From NCBI RefSeq assembly GCF_006345805.1, contig NC_042998.1, positions 129,084,001-129,148,000 of the forward strand: DNA of 64,000 nucleotides, read 5' to 3'. The translations under genes and the position numbers were made by a program. Shown here piece after piece: positions 22,045 to 64,000 of the stretch. The number at the start of each line of letters is the position of its first letter. The first letter of the stretch is position 1. Source of the stretch: Octopus sinensis (taxonomy: Eukaryota). The notes beneath the pieces were generated by a model that searched no databases, was not told where the DNA came from, and was given only the letters and a program-made list of their open reading frames with translations.

Positions 22045-25000
22045 CAGTGGTTCTTAACCTTTTTACTACCACACGCCCCTCTTGCATCTATGAATAACAT
22101 TCCCTCCCAGATTTTAAATAAAATCTAAAATATGTTTTTAGTCTTTTTATTGGATATGAATTAGTCACATTATACAAAATATGTATAATTTTATATACAA
22201 TCACATTATACAAAATTAAGACACTTGACACTGCTTCTTAGCTACAAGATCTTGAATGCGTGGTTGAATGCTAGAGAGTGCACAACGTAAGTCCCTTTCA
22301 ACGTTCAGCCCGTTTCTGTACTGTGTCTTGACAGCAATGAGCGTGGAAAATGCAGCTTCACAAAGATATGTGGTTTTAAACATAGCTAAAATCTGGAGAG
22401 CTTGATGTGAGATCAGAGGGTAAACCGGAAGTTACTTCATCTAGAACGTTTCAAGATCCATTTTTTAAAAGTCTTCCTTAGCTAGGGAGTTGAACTTCAG
22501 CTCAAGAAATTCCTCTCGCACTTCATCCAAAACACCAGTCACTTCACACTGAAATTAGTTCCGGATGAATTTCCAAGCTTCACGCTTTTCATCTATAGCT
22601 GGGAAGTATCTGATGAATTCTGTTTTTAAATCAGTTAGATGAGTGATTATTTGTCTTTTAAACTCAGAATCAAGGTTTCCGTGAATGAGAGCAGAATCCA
22701 AGTAACTAAAACTGGCTCTATTTCCCAGCTGAATTCGACATTTCCAGAGGTCGAGTTTGGCCATGAAGGTTCGAATGGTGTCGTGGTGTGTGTGAATGTT
22801 ATGTTTCCCTTGTAGTTTAAGGTCGAGAGCATTCAATGCTTCGAAGATGTCCACCAGGTAAGCTAGGGATGACTGAAAGCCTTCAGACTGGAACTTGTCA
22901 TGAAAATCTGCCTTTTGCTGCAAATCTAGAAATATTGCTACTTCCCGTAGTTCATAAAGCAGTCCAAGCATGTTCCCGTTTGATAGCCATCGTACGTTCA
23001 TGCGAAAATGCAATGCTTCATGTTCAGATTACATATCTTTACACAACAGTTTGAAAAGCCGACTATTTAAGGTCCCACCTTTAACAAAGTTAACAACTTG
23101 GATAGTCACGTTCAGGACATTTCTCATTTCAGTAGGTAAAGTTCTGAATGTTAAGGCTTCACGATGAAGTATGCAGTGTGTACCTACAACAGATGGATTT
23201 TTTTCTTTCATCCTAGTAATGAATCCAGACTGCAGACCAACCATGGCTGGAGCTCCATCAGTGCACTCCTCTATCAGCGAATCTCACAAAAGTTGACTTT
23301 ACTGAAAGAAGTTTGACACATCACGAAAAATAGATTCTGCTGTTGTACAACTAACCATAGGGTGACAGAACAACATTTCCTCTTTTACACAGTCGCCTGA
23401 CACAAAACGAGCATATGTCAGTAGCTGAGAACACTGAGCGAGGTCAGTCGTTTCGTCACACTGGATGGCAAAAACAGGAGACTTTTACTTGATCGAGAAT
23501 TTGATCTTTGATGTCTTAAGACAAGTCACCGATTCTTCTCTTGACTGTATGTTTGATAGTGAAATCTGGGCAAGCTTGTTTGCACTATCTTTCCTCAGAA
23601 CGAGTTCTGCTGCATTGTTTTATGAGAGATTCTCCGATGTTATAGCTCTTCTTTCTCTTTGCAATCAACATGATGATCTCATTAAGAAGCCTCATCAACC
23701 ATTGAAGTTTGTTGCCGAAATGCCCCACTACTGTCCAACTTAGCTTGCTTCAAGGAATGTTTTTTTTTTAAAGAATGTCTTGGGCTTGTCGGCAAGAGCA
23801 GGATGTGTTGTCCTCAAGTGACGTTCCAAGCGTGAGGGTCACATTCCATCATTGCTCAAAGTTTTGTAACATATCACCCACTGGGAGACTTCTGTGTCAC
23901 CCTTTTGGAGGTACACGAATCCAAATCGAATATATTCGTCAAGATACATCCGTTTCTTTGCACTCATTGCGAATTATTTTATGTGCAGTGGACAACACAA
24001 GTATATGAACAAAAGATAAGGCACTTGTAAGGTAATGTCAAGGTCCAAGTTAGAATGCTAACCAAATTAGAACGATTGGAGTAAAATGTTCTAAAAAAAA
24101 TAAATCGAAAAAATTTGGAATAAAAGTTAAATAAAAGAAAGTTTGTACGAAAGATTTGAACAATAAAATATTGTATATATTTGTATGAAAACATAACAAA
24201 AAGTTTCTTTAAAAGAGAAAATATTTTGCATAGCTTCTAGTTTTACCTAGTACTTTCTATAACATTTGAATCTGAATTTTAGCTTAACATTTGACTTTAT
24301 ATTATAATTTTTTTCTTACAAAAAAATTTACTATATTTTTAACATAAACGTTTAATATTAAAAATTGTGGTTTTATTGTTAAAATTTTTATCTTTCCAAT
24401 CTGAGTTTTAATTTTTTTTAGACTTTATTAAATTGAACAATAGTAGATTTATTACATACTTTTTGTTTTATTTCCTATTTTTAAATGTATCATACTTTTC
24501 ATCTTGCTAAAATTTAAAAATAGTTTTCAATTTTTTAAATTAAAAGTTGATATTTCTTAGCGTGTTACAATAACGATTTGATAATGTTTCAGCATATTTC
24601 TTGATTTTTAAGAATCACATTATTTCATATATATAAAAACTGTCGATCAAATTTGTTCATAATCTATGAACTGAAAAAAAAAAATGTTTGTCTTTACACA
24701 ATAATAATATCTAAGCTTTATACTAGTGATTCTTAACCTGAGTCTTCTTGTGACAAAAAAAAAAAAAAATACAAAATAAAGGCAAATGCTAAAGGTACAA
24801 TTCAGAATTAGTGAGGGGTTAGAGGGATATGAAGTGGGGTCAATAAGTAGAGAAAATGGTAAGCAGGACTGATATAGAATAAGAAAACTAAAGGTGTAAG
24901 GCGATACTTTTGCATGTTTCATAAACTTGTCATTATTTGACCATCCTCGTTAAGAGAGTAACCAATATAATTAGAGAAATTCCTGCTTTGTCTGAAGGGT

Positions 25001-31799: not shown

Positions 31800-32100
31800 T
31801 TACAACTGTATCTGGGATATACCAGAGTATGGGATATTCCGTAATCAGAGACGTCATTTTGCCGGGTTAAATTTTGATTTATTTTTCGCCAAGGATTCGT
31901 CATTCTCATTAATTTTATCAGTAAAAAATTCCTCAAAGTTTTTGATGTCTTCCTCCAATTCCTGATGGTGGCTGTAGGTGTAGGTGTGAACTTTACTCCT
32001 TTCATCAATAATCGAAGTTCACCACTGTTTATATTTCTTCTAGAGAGATTAATAATTTTAGGGTCTATCCTATAAGTTGTTTCACAGTTGTTTCTTCTTG
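31800..32100 (-). mobile_element. Penelope-like element ORF N-terminal remnant
   Basis: LSRRNINSGELRLLMKGVKFTPTP..ELEEDIKNF...SLAKNKSKFNP matches the PLE N-terminal pattern NLS..LL.KGLKF.PTP. Confidence 0.7.
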
Positions 32101-33329
32101 GACGGGATCTATGTCAGTAATATCGGTGCGTCCGACCAATCGTGACGTTTAAGTTGCATGCTGATTGGTCAAAACAGTATTCCAAAATTCAGTTTGTTGG
32201 AACCTTCTAAAAGCTATAAAAATGAATAAGTCAGTCATTTTAGTACAGTTGTCAAGAACTCAACTGTCAGTTAAATACATTTTGAAATCTGACGATTACT
32301 ACGAACGCATGAAAGCGCTAATTGAACTTTATGAACATTACAATATATTTTTTAAAATTTTAACACACTTCAACATTGCAAATGTATTTTGAAATACAAT
32401 AATAAATAACATGAAAACCAGACGATTCACCTTTGGCTACAGTGGTTTAAGGTATAATTTAATGTTATATCATTGTTATTTGGTGCTGTAACATAAATCC
32501 GGAACTGTAATAGTTTTGATGTATAATAGGACGTCTCTTTTGGATACGGCTAACCGATAGGTTATTGGTTCGTATCATATCATCAGCACTGCAATATTGG
32601 CCCAAGACATATTTATAGCGCTAAAATTGTCGCTTCACTTAGCTGCAAGATGTTATTGTTTAGACCCAAGTCTGCCCTGATTTAGAAGACATGAGCAAAT
32701 GTATTTTCATTTTTTTACCAGATAGTATATTTAATGCTACATTGTTCAATATATCTTTAAAAAAGATGTAATTTTAGGGAAATTTGGGTATTACTTTTAG
32801 CAGATCGTGCGGCCATTTGAAACTCGTTGTGTTTTTAGCGGCAAGTTAGTAGCGAAGTGGCTGTAGCGCTCGGGTGTATATAGCAGTAGTTAGTGTCTAT
32901 GTTTGTCCTGTCATAAACTGGCTTATGATTGACTGGTGTACTAGAATTTGGAGATAATCACTGAACCAGGATGACAGTAAATGAAAATAATATAAGATAT
33001 ATTGCTGTGTTGTTTGTCGCTTTTTTGTTTTGTTTTATAAGACCAAGTCATCCTTGATCACGTAGACTTAATCTAGGAGCCAACGAGGGAGCTCCTACAC
33101 GTTTAATCAACGTGTTATAATTATCAGTAAAACCTCCTTAGATTATGTAAATGCAATATAATGAAGTGCAATTGTGTGCAGAATAATGTTGTTGTTTCGT
33201 AATTATGGGGCTGTGTAGGAAAGGTAAGTGGCGTGTATTTATAACGTAGTAGGAAACAGAAAGAACAATTGATATTGAAATAAAGTATTCATGTGTGAAT
33301 AACACACGACAATAGGTAAGATAAAGGCG

Positions 33330-33540: not shown

Positions 33541-33840
33541 TATAATACAGATAAATCTTTGAAAAATACTGTAGTATTTTAACCTTCTAAATTATAAGAA
33601 GCATATCATTTTGGAAGAACCATTTGTGTAAGGAAATATCTAAAGTATTTGAAAGAGACCTTCCTTATGAAGTAATTAAAAATGTTTTAAATTGCAATAC
33701 CTTTGAAACTATGGATTTAAACTTACATGCCGAAAGTAAGTTTAAATAAAACAGAAAATAATACTAAAACATGGATATTTTGACTGTAGTGAAGAAGATA
33801 TCTTCTCAGAATGGTAAGCAGAAGTATTAGATAAGATTAA

Positions 33841-33847
33841 TATATAT

Positions 33848-33880
<33 letters not shown>

Positions 33881-33935
33881 CATCCATATATATATATATA
33901 TATACAATACATACATATATAATATATATTATTAC

Positions 33936-33988
<53 letters not shown>

Positions 33989-34006
33989 CATATATATATA
34001 ATATAC

Positions 34007-34039
<33 letters not shown>

Positions 34040-34083
34040 ATACATATATACATATATATACATATATACATATATACATATAT

Positions 34084-34149
<66 letters not shown>

Positions 34150-34150
34150 C

Positions 34151-34191
<41 letters not shown>

Positions 34192-34263
34192 ATACTATAT
34201 AATATATATATATATATAATATATACATTATATATATATATACATATATATACATATATCATT

Positions 34264-34295
<32 letters not shown>

Positions 34296-34503
34296 TACAT
34301 ATATATATATATCTATATATACATATATATATATATATATATACATAATATTAATATATATATATATATAATTAATATTATATATATATATATATATATC
34401 TATATATTATATACATACATACATATATATAGTATACATATATATATATATTATATATATCTATATATATTATATATATACATATATATATATATATAGA
34501 TAC

Positions 34504-34566
<63 letters not shown>

Positions 34567-34624
34567 CATATTATATATATAATAATATATATTATATATA
34601 TATATATATCTATATATTATACAT

Positions 34625-34660
<36 letters not shown>

Positions 34661-34814
34661 CATATAGTATACATATATACTATATATATAACATATATAT
34701 ATATACTATAATACATATATTATATATATATATACATATAATATATATATAATATACATATATATATAACATATATATATATATTATACATATATATATA
34801 TAACATATATATAC

Positions 34815-34845
<31 letters not shown>

Positions 34846-34870
34846 CATATATATAATATAATATATATAT
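33841..34870. repeat. Long imperfect (TA)n/(TACATA)n tract
   Basis: Directly visible. Confidence 0.95.
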
Positions 34871-34874
34871 ACTT

Positions 34875-35984
34875 AACAATTGAGGGCATAAATTAATAAT
34901 TATTAATCAATTTCACCAAGTGTTCAGTATGCAAAGGGACCATTCAAGGCTAATTAAATATTACTATATAAAAGGGCTTAGTAAAATAAATTATTTGCCG
35001 CATACTGAACTCATTAGAAATAGCAGCTAAAAAACTTTTTTAAGGCTATTTCTAATACTTAAAGAAAATCTCTCTCATATATAGTGTTTGCATAATTTAC
35101 TCACAAAAGTTGGGGGAATGACATCGGAAAAATCAAATGCTAAGGTTATTCGAGAACGTACGTTTCAAGATTAGTCAAACAACTTTTTATATCATCGGCT
35201 CGGAAATTCCTTGGTTTGGATTGGAAATGGAAACACTGAAAATAAGAACATACCTCTCGAAGATCTGCTCCCAACTAACAGTGTCAACAAATTCAAATAA
35301 GCAAGCGAAGAAGAAGCTCTGTTCTCCCCTTTCCACCAGCGTGGGTTAAAATCATCAACTCTATGCTTATTTCGTAAAGTCCGAAGCATTAATCAGAGGG
35401 AGATTATATAATTTCAACAATTGAGGGCAAAATTAATTAATTATTAATCAATTTCACCAAGTGTTCAGTATGCAAAGGGACCATTCAAGGCTATATTCAA
35501 ATTATTACATTATATAAAAGGGCTTAGTAAAATAAATTACTTTGCCGCATACTGAACTCATTAGAAATAGACAGCTAAAAAACTTTTTTAAGGCTATTCT
35601 AATACTTAAAGAAAATCTCTCTCATATATAGTGTTTGCATAATTTAACTCACAAAAGTTTGGGGGTAATGACATCGAAAAATCAATGCTAAGGTTATCGA
35701 GAACGTACGTTTCAAGATTAGTCAAAAAACATTTCAATCCAAAACCAAGGAATTTCCGAGCCGATGATAGAAATGTTGTTTTGACATCTTGAAACGTACG
35801 TTCGCGAATACCTTAGCATTTGATTTTTCGATGTCATTACCCCCCAAACTTTTGTGAGTTAAATTATGCAACACTATATATGAGAGAGATTTTCTTTAAG
35901 TATTAGAACGAGCTTAAAAAGTTTTTAGCTGCTATTCTAATGAGTTCATATGCGGCAAAGTAATTTATTTTACTAAGCCCTTTT
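34875..35984. mobile_element. Hammerhead-bearing repeat: 541-bp unit, partial direct copy and inverted copy (Penelope pLTR or retrozyme-like)
   Basis: Unit 34875-35415; direct copy 35416-35733; inverted copy ~35735-35984. Hammerhead-like motif at 35149-35205 (-) and 35754-35808 (+). Confidence 0.7.
35754..35808 (+). ncRNA. Type I minimal hammerhead-ribozyme-like motif (CCGAUGA core variant)
   Basis: TTCCGAG-CCGATGA-stem II (tAGAaATGTT..GACATCTt)-GAAAC GTAC GTT-C(G)CGAA; palindromic stem III ACGTACGT. Confidence 0.55.
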
Positions 35985-35989
35985 AATAA

Positions 35990-35992
35990 TAC

Positions 35993-36025
<33 letters not shown>

Positions 36026-36077
36026 CATAATATATATTACATATATATATATAACATATATATAATATATATATAAC

Positions 36078-36122
<45 letters not shown>

Positions 36123-36511
36123 TATTATATACATATATACACATATATATATATACATATATATATATAGACATATATATAGATTATATATACATATATA
36201 TATATACTATATATACATAGAAATATATATATATCATTATACCATATAATATATACATATAACATATTATTATATATACATATACACATATATATATATA
36301 TAATAATACATTATTATATATACATATATATATACATATATATAATACATATATATTACATTATATATATATACATTATATATATATACCTATAATATAT
36401 ATAATATATATAAATCATATATACATATATATATATATCTTACATAATATTTATACATTATATATAACATAATATATATTACATTTATATATATATATAC
36501 ATTATATATAG

Positions 36512-36593
<82 letters not shown>

Positions 36594-36635
36594 ATATAAC
36601 ATAATATATATATATATAATATATATATATAATAC

Positions 36636-36668
<33 letters not shown>

Positions 36669-37344
36669 CATATATTTACATATATATATTATACATATAT
36701 ATACATATATTATATACATATATATATATATAATACATATATACATATATATAATATACATATATACATATATATATAGACATATATATATAAACAATAA
36801 TATATTACATATATATATATATATACATATATATTATACATATATATATACATATATAATTATACATATATACATATATAATATACATAATATTATATAC
36901 CTATATATATATAGATATATATAACATATATATATATACATATATATATAATAATATATATATACATATATATATATACATATATATATATCCATATATA
37001 TATACATATATACATATAATATATACATATATACATATATATATATACATATACACATATATATATACATATATATATATACATATATATATATAACATA
37101 TATATATACACTATATATTAATACATATATATATATACATAATATATACATATATACTATACATATAATACTATATATATATACATATATATATATACAT
37201 ATTATATGTACATATATATATATATATGTAATATAGATATATACATATATATATATACATATATATATATATACATATATATAGATATACATATATAATA
37301 TACATAATATAATATATATATACATATATAATAATATACATATA

Positions 37345-37379
<35 letters not shown>

Positions 37380-37401
37380 TCTATACATATATTATAACAT
37401 A

Positions 37402-37433
<32 letters not shown>

Positions 37434-37468
37434 CCTATATATATATATATACATATATACATATATAC

Positions 37469-37504
<36 letters not shown>

Positions 37505-37506
37505 AC

Positions 37507-37556
<50 letters not shown>

Positions 37557-37620
37557 ATATATATATATTACATATATATATATATATATATATATATCAT
37601 ATATATATATTATATATATA
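35990..37620. repeat. Long imperfect (TA)n/(TACATA)n tract
   Basis: Directly visible. Confidence 0.95.
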
Positions 37621-43589: not shown

Positions 43590-45775
43590 TGTGCAAAAGT
43601 ACGACGACCCCTGGAAAGACTAGACTGAACCACTACATATAAATAGCAGCGGTCTGAGTAAATGAGGTTGTTCGTGCAGAACGGTAGTATTCCTGCGTCT
43701 GTGAGCCGGAAAGTGGTGGCACTGATCAGGAAGGACCCAAACAAGGGGCACGTAATTGACAACTTTAGGTCCCTCATTCTGCTTAACGCAGAGTTGAAGA
43801 TTCTGGCCAAAGTATTAGCAAAAAGTTTGACGAAAGTCGTAGATGGTGTCGTTGGAGAGGCGCAGACCCACACCATGCCCGGCAGGACTATACGCGATCA
43901 TCTCCGCCCTATACGCTATACTTTAGAAAGCGTCAATAGGATTCCTAGAAAGGGTAAATAGAATCTGGCAAGGGTTGAGCGTTAGTCCAATTAGACCAAT
44001 CCAAGGCCTTTGATAGGGTAGACTGTCGGTATCTGGCGGTGGTCCTAGAGGCAGCAGGCTTTGGCACGACATTCCGCGGCTGGATCAATGCTTTATATAG
44101 CAGCATCAGGTCGGTAGTTCGGGTGAACGGTCTCTTTTAGGAGCCGTTCAATATCGAACGCTCGGTTCGTCAAGGTTGTCCACTTTCGTCTCTGCTGTAT
44201 GTATTGGCTCTTGAGCCACTATTGTAAAGATTGAAGACGACGAATGGAGACCTGCAAAATTTAGGTTATGGAAAGTCAGTCACAGCGTTTGCGGACAATG
44301 TCACTGTCAACGTATCTAGGGACCAGGACCTAAAGAGCTTAGGTGAGGCCCTAAAGGATTACGAAGCGGTGGCAGGAGCAAGAAGTAACCGGGATAAATC
44401 GGTCGGCTTGCAGCTCGGCACCTGAAGAGGCAAGTCGATGCGATCCAACAGCGTCGTCGGACGCTGAACAGACGGTCCGGTGCTTGGGGTCTGGTTTGGT
44501 CCAGACTTCCAGATAGAGAAGAATTGGAGTAAGGTTACAGGCAGGGTGGCGTCTATAACTCAGATCTGGTCTGGTTAGAGGCTATCCCTAAAAGGAAGTG
44601 CGGAGGTGGCAAATGTGTTTATCGTATCTGTCATTACCTATCGCCTAACCGTTGTGCCGTGCCCCGATAAGGCTAAACAAGTTGGAACGCATGTTCTTTC
44701 ACTTCTTGCGGGAGGGCAGGTGGCCTCTTTTAAGGCGCTCTATCTGCTGCCAACAGTCACAAAAGGGTGGGTTAAGGATGCCGTAGCTAAAGATGCACAG
44801 GCATGCGCTGAGGTTGGGGCATCTCTGGCTCTACCTGGACGGTGAGCTTTGTGGTCTCCGTTCGTTGATGAGATATTTCTCTTTTGGTAAACTGGAATGC
44901 TGGATTAGGCGTAGACCAAGTCTGGGAGCTTGGCAAGCAGAGTGTCGACAGGCGCTCGGGTTTCTCTCCCGAACGAGCAATGCCAGCGGAGGGGGTGCCA
45001 CATCGGCTTACTACAAAGGGCTGGTAGAGGGCAAGTATGATGACGGCCTGGAGCGACTCTGGGCTTCGATGAAAGTCAGCTTGCCAACATGCATCGAAGG
45101 GGTTTCGGTACGGGACCTATGGACAACTTCCAGAGATCCCTGGCTTGGCTGTGCTTCCGAAGTGCCTTGCCAGTTCGGGATAAAATTGCGAGGCACGGCG
45201 TCACGGATTCGCCTACGTGCCCACGTTGCTGGCAGAGCAACGAAACTATTTTGCATAAAATCGTGCAGTGTTCGAGTCTCTCGGACCTCTGGCTTTCTAC
45301 CGTACGAGTATTGTCACTGCTGGGGAGAGTACGGCCGTCAGCCGAGTCGATTTTTAAGAACGTTCCGCCGCCTTCGTTAAAAGGAGAAGAGAAATTCTGC
45401 TTTCTGGCCATAATAGCTATAGCGAAAGAGGTGATATCGAAGACGCATGAATGAGGTATCGCATCAGACACCTTCGTCTCCGGGCATGATTTTGTTAACC
45501 TCTTTTTATATCACTTCAGAGGGAAAGTATGCCTGAAGAAGAAATGCCTTATGTAAAAAAAGTAGTTAAGCGGGGGGGGGGGACGAAGTAAATAGTTCAA
45601 CGCAGGAATGTGGTTGGTGGGGGTCAAACCCATTCCGCATCCATTCATTCCTTCATTTTCATTCGCAGTTATAATGTTTTTATTCACTATATGTAATCTC
45701 ATCCGACAAGTCCTCGATCCCTATTTGTCCCGTGTATTGTCCCCTCTTTGGTTAACCCTTGTGGCTTTAATAAAA
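43590..45775 (+). mobile_element. 5'-truncated Tx1/L1-clade LINE (RT and C-terminal CCHC), decayed
   Basis: NFRSLILLNAELKILAKVL; LDQSKAFDRVD; SVRQGCPLS; AFADNV; LGVWFG; CPRCWQSNETILHKIVQC; 3' UTR ending CCCTTGTGGCTTTAATAAA. Confidence 0.92.
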
Positions 45776-50204: not shown

Positions 50205-51440
50205 TTAGGATGGCAACAAAGTTCCCGCTGTTTTTTTAATTTAAAAGTTTTAAAGGTTTAAAAAAAATAACAGCTAATTAATCAATAATGTATTCATCCT
50301 TGTTATTTACAACTTCTTCCCAACGTTCAACAAGATTGTCAATACCTCGTGGGTAGAAATCACCTGATTTCTACTCGAAAAATTGATCCAACCAGCTCTC
50401 AATTCTGCATCAGTATTGAGCGAAACTCTGCGTATAGCATTTGAATGAGGTGGAAATACGTTGGTGCCAAATCAGGAGAGTACGGCGGCTGTGACAACAT
50501 TTCCCAGCTATGCTTTTGAATGGCATCCTTGGTCATATTGGCGATATGAAGGCGGGCGTTGTCGTTTAGCAGAAGAACTCCATGCTGACTGCTGACGATT
50601 AGTTCTTTTCTCTCGAATAGCTGTGTTGAGCTGTTCCATCTGTTGAACATAGAGTTCCGCGTTGACCGTTTGGTTCCGTTCAAGCAATTCTTAATGGATA
50701 ATCTCTTCCCAGTCCCACCATACGCACAACATCGTTTTACGCGGATGAAGATCTTGTTTCGCGCGCTGTGTCGCTTGTTTACCGGGGCTAGGCCATTCAT
50801 TACGCTGCTGCATATTGATGTACAGATACCATGTTTCGCCGCCAGTAACGATTCGGTAAAGAAATCGTTGCTTGTGTCCATGAGTTGAGCGGTGACGAGC
50901 CAGCAAACCAGCGGAGATTGTGGCACATTGATTTTTGTTGTCGTCACTTAAAGCATGCGGAACCCATGCTTCATACTTCTGGACCCTTCCCATCGAGTGA
51001 AGATGCTTCTCTATAGCAATGTGGAAGCATTCCATTTTCTCTGCTAGTTCCCTTGTCATTTGACGAGAATTGTCGTGCAAAAGTTGGGTTAATCGCTCTT
51101 CATCGAACTCAACTGGACGGCCAGAACGAGGTATGCCTTTGAGGTCAAAATTTCCATATTTGAACTTGGCATACCAATCACGAACGGTTCTTTCAGCTAT
51201 GGCACACTCTCCATACACAGCAAAAATGTCGCGAGCAGCTTTTGCGGCCTTAGAACCTTGATTAAAAGCAAAAAGGACGTGTCGAAAATGCTCATTTTTC
51301 TTGACATAACATTTTAATGATCTGAAAATAAACAAAAAATAACAAAAGCAAAAGACAAAAAACAAAATAGACTCCAAAATTTAAAAACGCAATAAATTCC
51401 AAAATTTAAAAAAACGGCGGCAACTCAGTTGCCAATACAA
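50205..51440 (-). mobile_element. Full-length mariner transposon (~1.24 kb)
   Basis: Imperfect ~30-bp TIRs (TTAGGATGGCAACAAAGTTCCCGCTGTTTT vs reverse complement TTGTATTGGCAACTGAGTTGCCGCCGTTTT), flanked by TA on both sides. Confidence 0.93.
50278..51320 (-). pseudogene. Mariner DD34D transposase, inactive
   Basis: PRSGRP; WVPHAL; IVTGGETW (first catalytic D replaced by G); NDNARLH; PPYSPDLAPTYFHL (third D replaced by Y); frameshifts. Confidence 0.93.
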
Positions 51441-62050: not shown

Positions 62051-64000
62051 TTAAATTTGCAGAGCGTCTTGATAAACAACACTTTTGTTCTTTCGTTGTG
62101 GGGCATAAATAAACAAATGATTAGGATTGCCGACTCTTGAGCATCCGACATAAAGTTGGCCATGGGAGAAAACTGGCTCCGCAAGGTTCAGACCTGCCAC
62201 GTTCAAGGACTGTTTCTGGGCGCTGTTAATGGTCATTGCAATGCTCAGTTTCAACGGGAAATGCAGGCGCTTGTACTGGAAAGGTACATCCAAGGAAATA
62301 AGTGGAATTCTAGGAATGAATACAGGCTCACCGCTTGCTTTACCAATTGTTGTATCCAAGTTTGTTGGCATAATCTTCTTTATTATAAGTAGTGTGTCGT
62401 TGCAAAGCTTTGGTGGAAGAGGTTTCGAAGTAGCGTAGCTGGGGCCCCAATCCTGGGGTGAAAGTTGTGAGGTGGGAGACAAGCTGGTGTTAGACTATTC
62501 AAGAATTCAACTGGATAATTCACGGCTTCATCGATGTTGAGTACAGCGTCATTGGAATTGTAGATGTGATGCTCACCTGGCAACTGCTCCAGAAGTTTAA
62601 AGTTCAAATCATTAACTCCCATATTCTTTGGAGCTAAAATGGCACGGGTTTTCAGCCAGTTGTGGTATGTAAACTGGTTCCTCAGGTTAGGGAACACTTT
62701 GTTCATTAGTTCCTTTAAATCAGATACCATATGTCCAAAGGGTAAGCTTGTCCGTCCATACTTCTCGCCAGCCAAAGTGCCATTACCGACATCCAACAGC
62801 TGCTTTGAAAAAGTTGTCTGCATCATCACTATGAACTGCACTTTCATGCTGGTTGTGAGTCTTAGCTTTTGCACTCTGCTCCATATGTAGGATGATTTTA
62901 TGCTGGCATTTACTTCATCAGCTCTTGTCCCCTTTGGAACCACTGGAAGGGTTTGTCGAAAGTCTCCTGCAAACAAGACTGTGGCACCTCCCATGAGCCT
63001 GGTGTTTTGTCTCAGAACCTGAAGGGACATGTCAAGAGCTTCAAAGGAAACCTTATGGCTCATTGTCGCTTCATCCCAGATGATCAACCTGCATTCATCC
63101 TGAAGTTTGCCTTTTATAGAACCACGACTGATGTTGCAGCTTGCCTTCTCTTTCTTGGATAGGTCCAAAGGATGCTTGAGACAGGAATGAGCTGTGCGGT
63201 CACCACTTAGCAGAGTTGCAGCTGTTCCACTTGCCGCCACTGCTATGGCATTGTGCTTCATATGGCGCAGTTTAGCCAGAAGAACTTTGATGACAAATGT
63301 TTTACCGGTTACACCTGGATCATCCAGAAAGAAAAAGACCTACTCTTTCATTTTCAGTGATCGAAATAATGGTGTTATAAACACCTAGTTGGTCATCCAT
63401 CAGTTTGTATTCTTTATCAGTTATATACGCCGTCATTTCCTCGATGTCATAGCTGATTTCTCATAGGTACTCAATTGCGAGATTGTTTGCTGCATGCCCC
63501 GGATGAAACAGATCAAATGTGGAATTGCCTTGACCTCCTATTGCTTGCACTCGGATGTCCAGGTTAAGTAATGCCTCATTGTAAATGGTGTTATTGAACG
63601 CGGTAATTTCCGCCGAGGTTTGCTTTTGAATTCTTTCTAGATGTCCTCTGCCATGCTAGTTTTTTGAATCGCGCAAAGCTTGTGAGGTTCACGCAAGCCA
63701 CATGTCATCAACATAATGAAAAATAGCTGGCGCAGTTGACTTAGCGCTGTGATGATTGCTGTCACCTTCAGTGTCTGGTCCCAGCGAGCATCGTCCTCCA
63801 GTAGTCCATGTTTGACGCAGGCTTCTTCTATAGGTCGTATAGACTTCCCATTGTTTCTTCGAAAGTTTTTGAATGATGTAGTACCTCTGATAGCGTGTAG
63901 CAGTAGATGCAGAAAGAAACACTCCTGCTGATTAAGGTACACATTGTACACCCACCTGATAGCCCCATTTCGAAGGCAGCATCTTCTTCCCAGCCCTCAA
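62051..64000 (-). pseudogene. Helitron Rep-helicase, PIF1-like helicase half, frameshifted; continues beyond the window
   Basis: LDDPGVTGKTF (Walker A); ASGTAATLL; IIWDEATM; GDFRQTLPV; AILAPKN; AMTINSAQKQSL; HGQLYVGCSRV. Confidence 0.93.

Follow-up and report, generated by a model that had tools for sequence, protein, structure and literature searches.

How does a non-coding unit come to lie once in full, once in part and once more in inverted orientation between two (TA)n tracts? The question arises in a stretch of 64,000 nt from Octopus sinensis (hereafter the window), where two arms of a non-coding 546-nt unit, one of 865 nt and the other inverted and 255 nt long, are flanked by (TA)n. The unit defines a young, dispersed family, and the class to which it belongs, that of the non-LTR retrozymes, is already known. 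We propose that the insertion probably entered its TA microsatellite through a Penelope-like reverse transcriptase (RT)/GIY-YIG protein, which would have primed on both cut strands and copied one circle. Statements on published systems refer to the available parts of the papers cited.

The window locus and its family

The left and right target tracts occupy positions 33840-34871 and 35989-37620. Between them, the arrangement described by the sequence-only reading was recovered in each of its parts. On the minus strand, the outer 3' end, which is the tail-bearing one, lies at 34870-34880 (unit position ~552, called site A) and is the presumed priming site. It belongs to a full unit (34875-35415, family-unit positions 1-546), 94% identical to locus L011, with mostly indels as differences. 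This unit is followed by a 5'-truncated direct copy (35416-35739, minus strand, positions 221-546) that keeps the cut site and lacks the catalytic 5' strand. At the inversion junction (35736-35739), two cDNA ends were apparently joined with a 3-4 nt overlap, and an inverted 5'-truncated arm then runs on the plus strand (35736-35990, positions 192-454) up to a second end, site B. Read in ribozyme sense, the arms are divergent.

Two complete type I hammerhead motifs were found. The first (35149-35205, minus strand), identified by sequence and by pairing across subfamilies, has its predicted cut between 35155 and 35154, and the second (35754-35808, plus strand) has a predicted cut after 35802 and one stem I mismatch. 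The stem I strand of this inverted copy reads CGCGAA, which is possibly a sequencing error. Since the partial direct copy is devoid of the catalytic 5' strand, the window has one complete motif per strand. The foldback announced from the letters, with arms of about 215 bp, was also found (214-216 pairs across the centre), and its hairpin covers the second cut site. For these two reasons, we regard this short locus as a probable dead-end daughter rather than a source of RNA; the foldback itself is a by-product of insertion. The window's own copies differ from each other by 3 mismatches and 18 gap positions. The unit length of 541 bp given at first holds for the window copy, but it results from indel noise and does not apply to the family, whose unit is 546 nt long.

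As had been stated, no recognisable protein is encoded: all frames of the 546-nt unit stop, and in a circular reading the longest Met-started frame has 67 aa. A plasmid-like rolling ORF was rejected because every frame stops, and a centromeric satellite because the arrays are short and dispersed.

A check of copy number, suggested by the sequence-only reading, gave a positive answer. In the genome (2.72 billion bases, ~30 chromosome-scale contigs), 1,006 exact matches to the hammerhead core with CCGATGA were counted, versus 1 for the reversed control pattern. The core of the sister subfamilies, whose units are 541-560 nt long, gave 2,550 exact matches (control, 0). A DNA search for the unit returned at least 296 matches, from 40 of 1,227 candidates. 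Contig 1 holds 80 cores of the window type in 29 clusters, and scaling from these clusters would put the family at roughly 365 insertions. Arrays reach 17 units. It is practically certain that these copies form a real dispersed family.

The unit resembles the metazoan non-LTR retrozymes, which are also low in GC, non-coding and tandemly arranged, with one type I hammerhead in every unit, and which are found dispersed in genomes alongside coding Penelope-like elements (PMC7229834; bioRxiv 10.64898/2026.07.22.740005). Its 546 nt compare with 170-400 nt in one survey (Cervera and de la Pena 2020, PMC7229834) and with families of 51-972 in another (Li, Clavereau and Pollet 2026, bioRxiv 10.64898/2026.07.22.740005).

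In the same genome, distant non-coding families have their last 200 nt in common with the unit, at 65-74%. At least three further ~600-nt non-coding families sharing these 3' 200 nt (L141, L099, L050, L193, L209) often lie within each other's TA flanks, and in L141 the core is canonical, with GUC, and stem II is long.

A hammerhead motif with a changed core

The motif comprises a bulged 6-bp stem I, a stem II with a U·U at its base, GAAA, and a 2-bp palindromic stem III. The latter sits within a 10-nt palindrome, for which pairing between copies is predicted at -11.6 kcal/mol. The 2-bp stem III and the U·U at the base of stem II are also those of axolotl HHR_Amex2, which cleaves better as a dimer (PMC7229834). 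The motif is closer to the canonical amphibian type I form than to the minimal type I form first supposed.

All the segments by which the motif had been recognised (TTCCGAG, CCGATGA, GAAAC-GTAC-GTT and CTCGAA) are present, but a departure in the core had gone unflagged. The type I core consensus is followed at all positions except U4, which is a C in 347 of the 348 units covering the site, whereas the sister subfamilies keep U4. The core is thus a variant (U4C) hammerhead core, and the cleavage triplet is GUU. In the available parts of PMC7229834 and bioRxiv 10.64898/2026.07.22.740005, metazoan non-LTR retrozymes differ on this point. The identical change is found in a natural viroid hammerhead (Perreault et al. 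2011, PMC3088659). There, U4C considerably lowers activity in vitro, and the low activity is enough in vivo. Unlike in the viroid, ~1,000 genomic copies here have U4C fixed, in the youngest of the animal lineages examined.

The helices are conserved across copies: stems I, II and III pair in 94-100% of cells over 12 variants, and a distal helix in 55%. In a tree where each locus is represented by a single unit, one pair of stem I changes from U-A, found with the canonical core, to U·G and then to C-G, both found with U4C. No unpaired state was seen among 395 motif matches, some of which are counted twice through overlapping loci. This covariation amounts to one pair and one event, and one of five measures beats shuffles (5 of 500). 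U4C (position 217) and the stem I change at position 263 map to the same branch (L131-L159, L100). Together, the two changes would keep a 3-bp slipped, inactive pairing, which may be a coincidence.

A search of hammerhead models, also suggested by the earlier reading, was negative: Rfam had no hammerhead match for the 546-nt family at E up to 10, nor for the canonical-core sister, and returned nothing but sub-threshold miRNA-like hairpin matches. The hammerhead fold is predicted at -3.6 kcal/mol versus -11.3 kcal/mol for the predicted minimum. Stems II and III are buried by a competing hairpin and have p ~0.01 in the circle. The negative Rfam search, the thin covariation and this hairpin speak against activity, and just 1 of 9 Xenopus retrozyme dimers was cut in vitro (bioRxiv 10.64898/2026.07.22.740005). 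On the whole, we lean towards an active ribozyme. A weakened U4C ribozyme may keep circles from reopening, and this may have led to the expansion of the youngest lineage. The natural series of U-A, U·G and C-G pairs, with U4 and C4 cores, provides a test of whether weak ribozymes favour spread.

Divergent arms and two fixed ends

Seventy insertions were examined: the 40 top-scoring ones, window included, and 30 that correspond to contig 1 clusters in positional order. Over these insertions, 135 of 137 readable outer flanks were TA-rich. Two arms were present in 49, and in all 49 they diverged; in the sister subfamilies, 19 of 19 two-strand clusters did so (first 100 matches, read by eye). The fixed ends were always 3' in ribozyme sense, and the inner 5' ends were scattered, with some excess in positions 130-235 (38 versus 23).

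Outer ends fell at site A (unit position ~552) or at site B (~454), ~98 nt apart. Among the 43 classifiable two-armed insertions, 42 had one end of each kind and one was A+A (P=1e-11 versus independent choice). Six of the 49 were left out of this count, two because they met an N run or the edge of the retrieved sequence and four because an end lay elsewhere. Two later classified as A+B (one of the two interrupted cases and one further array) bring the count to 44/45. Single-arm insertions ended at A in 11 cases and at B in 10. In the sister subfamilies the A+B pattern held in 11 of 12, the other being a true A+A (L079, with unique flanks). The A+A exception of the 546-nt family, L156, has a 237 nt inverted flank.

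These counts bear on whether the arrangement arose from chimeric reads or assembly. The window copy is indel-noisy, its inversion junction is bridged by no contig in four public runs (which is uninformative for a repeat), and L156 resembles a larger foldback. Chimeras, however, predict either orientation and equal ends, against 49/49 divergent insertions and 44/45 with unlike fixed ends, and the two flanks at the window are not inverted copies of each other. An artefact is thus scarcely credible at the level of the family, in line with the first reading.

Three insertions stand apart. In L041 (3470-3584) and L156 (1592-1825), the flanks of the two sides are inverted copies (117 and 237 nt, 98%), which may reflect a foldback rearrangement, a palindromic target or an artefact. 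The outer arm of L146 (1001-1263) ends at unit position 381, where it abuts a different inverted-repeat element; this may be a second element that went into the hairpin of the unit.

Inspection of the junctions between arms revealed overlaps of at least 2 nt in 28 of 49, versus 19% in random pairs, some of the long ones being possible alignment artefacts; short inserts were present in 9. The 5' ends of the two arms lay within 30 nt of each other at 11 junctions, versus 5.5 expected, and were distant at the other 38. Such an excess of near-equal ends is predicted if a single priming event is followed by folding back of the cDNA, which the same enzyme then copies into the inverted arm. The short inserts, and the haplotype common to both arms that is described below, would also fit. 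It does not predict the 38 junctions with distant 5' ends, nor that either arm can be the longer one (26:16, with uncorrelated lengths), and it does not explain why the second arm ends at the other fixed site. We consider such a foldback unlikely, and strongly favour twin priming from two sites.

In L1 twin priming, both target strands prime, the 3'-ward ends face outward and the 5' ends are joined by microhomology; the second site is variable, and the arms do not repeat the template. Here, in contrast, both sites are fixed and the arms are multi-unit. Poseidon PAc of Anolis has two internal RT start sites bounding the tail, an AT-rich target cut on both strands, a predicted dimer and a protein-assisted hammerhead (Frangieh et al. 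2024, PMC11167929). For PAc, no strand difference in start site was seen and the authors did not match the sites up within insertions (PMC11167929), whereas one site per strand is the rule here.

The insertions carry the hallmarks of the Penelope type, namely 5' truncation, an inverted 5' copy, a tail at one end and a (TA)n target. Neptune/Naiad-type insertions likewise show 5' truncation, partial tandems and an inverted 5'-truncated copy (Craig et al. 2021, PMC8557442), and Penelope-like insertions often have a tail at one end only and (TA)n targets that hide target-site duplications (PMC8557442). In non-LTR retrozymes, target-site duplications exceed 4 bp when present. In our set, direct flank repeats were flagged in 7 of 64 insertions, all within microsatellites. 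The differences from the Neptune/Naiad types are the lack of an ORF, a tail of ~98 nt versus 30-40, up to 17 whole units per arm, and a tail rule that is here counted and near strict (PMC8557442). The available part of the same paper describes as unresolved how copies in tandem and in inverted orientation come about with a tail on one side. To this question, and to that of circular templates, the 546-nt family brings counts and a defined substrate, with two mapped priming sites and a TA target. The two-armed insertions, the A+B rule and the per-array haplotypes presented below are not described in the available parts of PMC7229834 or bioRxiv 10.64898/2026.07.22.740005. Searches of the open-access literature found no report of the end rule, of such haplotypes or of cephalopod retrozymes, although subscription papers or supplements may contain one.

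A CCCT motif follows a predicted hairpin 10-15 nt ahead of both priming sites (positions 441-454 and 534-552), an arrangement also present at both sites in one distant family. It is a possible duplicated recognition signal.

One template per insertion and its likely copying enzyme

Sequence variants were followed in 408 segments, giving 302 variant-by-array cases with at least three covering units. Singletons accounted for 167 of these. The 135 variants present in two or more units of an array were nearly all in every unit (124) or in all but one (2), and 9 were partial. Where both arms could be tested, 67 of 67 variants were present in both. The 44 arrays fell into 23 haplotypes, and the distance within arrays was 0.16%, in the same or opposite arm, versus 0.90% between arrays (none of 1,000 permutations reached so low a value). 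Many of the fixed variants belong to whole clades and are not private; four were tested genome-wide. Two proved private, each with 9 of 9 matches in one array only, in both arms. A third fills two arrays and occurs as one singleton. The fourth, a CpG transition, is present throughout one array and occurs as a singleton at nine further loci, which implies that mutations arising afterwards do not spread.

From a linear transcript, a given unit can be copied no more than once per arm, and the data thus call for a bottleneck of a single unit. The predicted cut site was exact in 326 of 359 units, with an indel rate of 0.08% versus 0.59%, and 3 of 119 inner 5' ends lay near it versus 4.6 expected. 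Since neither an indel excess nor a pile-up of 5' ends is seen there, the template was continuous at the cut site. A circular monomer fits both the bottleneck and the scarless cut site, and we consider a circular RNA template probable. Writing back of RNA edits was also looked for and rejected, as ~3 of 24 derived fixed sites were A-to-G, with no excess (by eye, polarity approximate).

The scarless site would be equally expected if the U4C ribozyme were nearly dead and uncut multimers served as template, with unequal crossover or gene conversion homogenising the arrays later. Slow cutting is indeed predicted from U4C, the GUU triplet and the competing hairpin (PMC3088659), and the Anolis element inserts in vitro without need for cleavage (PMC11167929). 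On contig 1, U4C arrays are also slightly longer, with 80 motifs in 29 clusters versus 96 in 48 for canonical ones, a difference (P=0.07) confounded by age. However, a linear template gives at most two copies of any unit, whereas the private variants fill at least nine, in both arms, and have no other carrier in the assembly. Homogenisation, moreover, sits poorly with the rarity of partial sweeps (9/135), with opposite arms being as similar as neighbours, and with CpG mutations that remain singletons. Copying of uncut multimers is therefore improbable.

A monomer DNA circle released from an array, amplified by rolling-circle DNA synthesis and reinserted without any role for RNA would also account for the single-unit bottleneck and the scarless site. 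Against it stand the fixed ends, always 3' in ribozyme sense with random 5' ends, and the coding Penelope-like elements that show the same two-end pattern (see below). The fold points the same way: the whole unit folds far better than shuffles (z -5.8 linear, -5.0 circular), and the sense circle is predicted at -133 kcal/mol versus -113 for the antisense circle. We judge a DNA circle very unlikely, and retain the RNA circle as the preferred template.

Such insertions could arise as follows. Longer tandem arrays would be transcribed, and their hammerheads, probably paired via the palindromic stem III, would slowly release monomers that a host ligase would close into circles. A dimeric Penelope-like protein would cut both (TA)n strands, its two subunits priming at A and at B, respectively, on the same RNA and at a distance of ~98 nt. 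Each subunit would then circle the template for 0.1 to 17 turns, and the two cDNA ends would be joined through 2-5 nt microhomology. Whether the insertions record rolling-circle reverse transcription, by a dimer whose subunits are each tied to one priming site, of an RNA circle made by the ribozyme, we hold to be an evenly balanced matter. Circles as RT templates, with Penelope-like elements as partners, were proposed before, and the step from circle to tandem cDNA was given as a hypothesis (PMC7229834; bioRxiv 10.64898/2026.07.22.740005). If true, a two-subunit rolling-circle RT would account for the layout of Penelope-like elements in general, with its tandem and inverted copies and its tail on one side.

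Candidate enzymes exist in this genome. It contains intact ORFs of 775-781 aa with RT and GIY-YIG domains and a CX2-5CxxC linker, as in Neptune and Nematis (PMC8557442), and one such coding family has two end points ~35 nt apart before (TA)n. Together with the copy number, the dispersed tandem arrays, the fixed 3' ends, the one-end tail, the inverted 5'-truncated arms and the TA targeting, these intact elements uphold the initial proposal of a non-autonomous, Penelope-mobilised retrozyme; mobilisation by a Penelope-like element is very probable.

Physical attachment of the unit to a coding RT/GIY-YIG element, which had also been envisaged, was not found. The GIY-YIG search gave 147 matches, with 150 of 5,029 candidates scored, so that a rare partner may have been missed. 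In 61 partly overlapping stretches around these matches, sharing with the unit was limited to nested retrozyme-type insertions. No homology to the unit's 3' region or to a pLTR was present among the matches listed (flanks of 30, 11 and 20 stretches), whereas 24 of 57 Xenopus families have a pLTR link (bioRxiv 10.64898/2026.07.22.740005). Two diverged relatives, followed over 50 loci as further candidates, turned out to be short or tandem non-coding elements, with their sole protein matches at the query's own nested locus. Parts of the unit are covered by contigs of public runs that are not recorded as RNA; a loose end in the contigs of run X6 resembles what we take to be a cDNA template-switch adapter.

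Two young Penelope-like families (L160 1673-5373 and L166 4744-7817) have a separate upstream ORF that overlaps the start of the RT ORF; that of L160 encodes 479 aa and has no Pfam match. The window itself contains, 1.7 kb from the TA tract, a fragment of a Penelope-like RT N-terminus (31851-32110, minus strand), 44% identical to the intact L166 ORF.

Other elements were noted in the window. A frame at 22555-23028 (minus strand) has no Pfam match and looks, we presume, like a hAT-derived relic. Broken PIF1 helicase frames (62051-63996, minus strand; PIF1 E 2e-50) presumably belong to a Helitron. A zf-RVT fragment of a LINE-type element lies at 45044-45454 (plus strand), and a broken mariner transposase of the Mos1 type, with HTH_48, Transposase_1 and weak DDE_3 matches, at 50399-51380 (minus strand).
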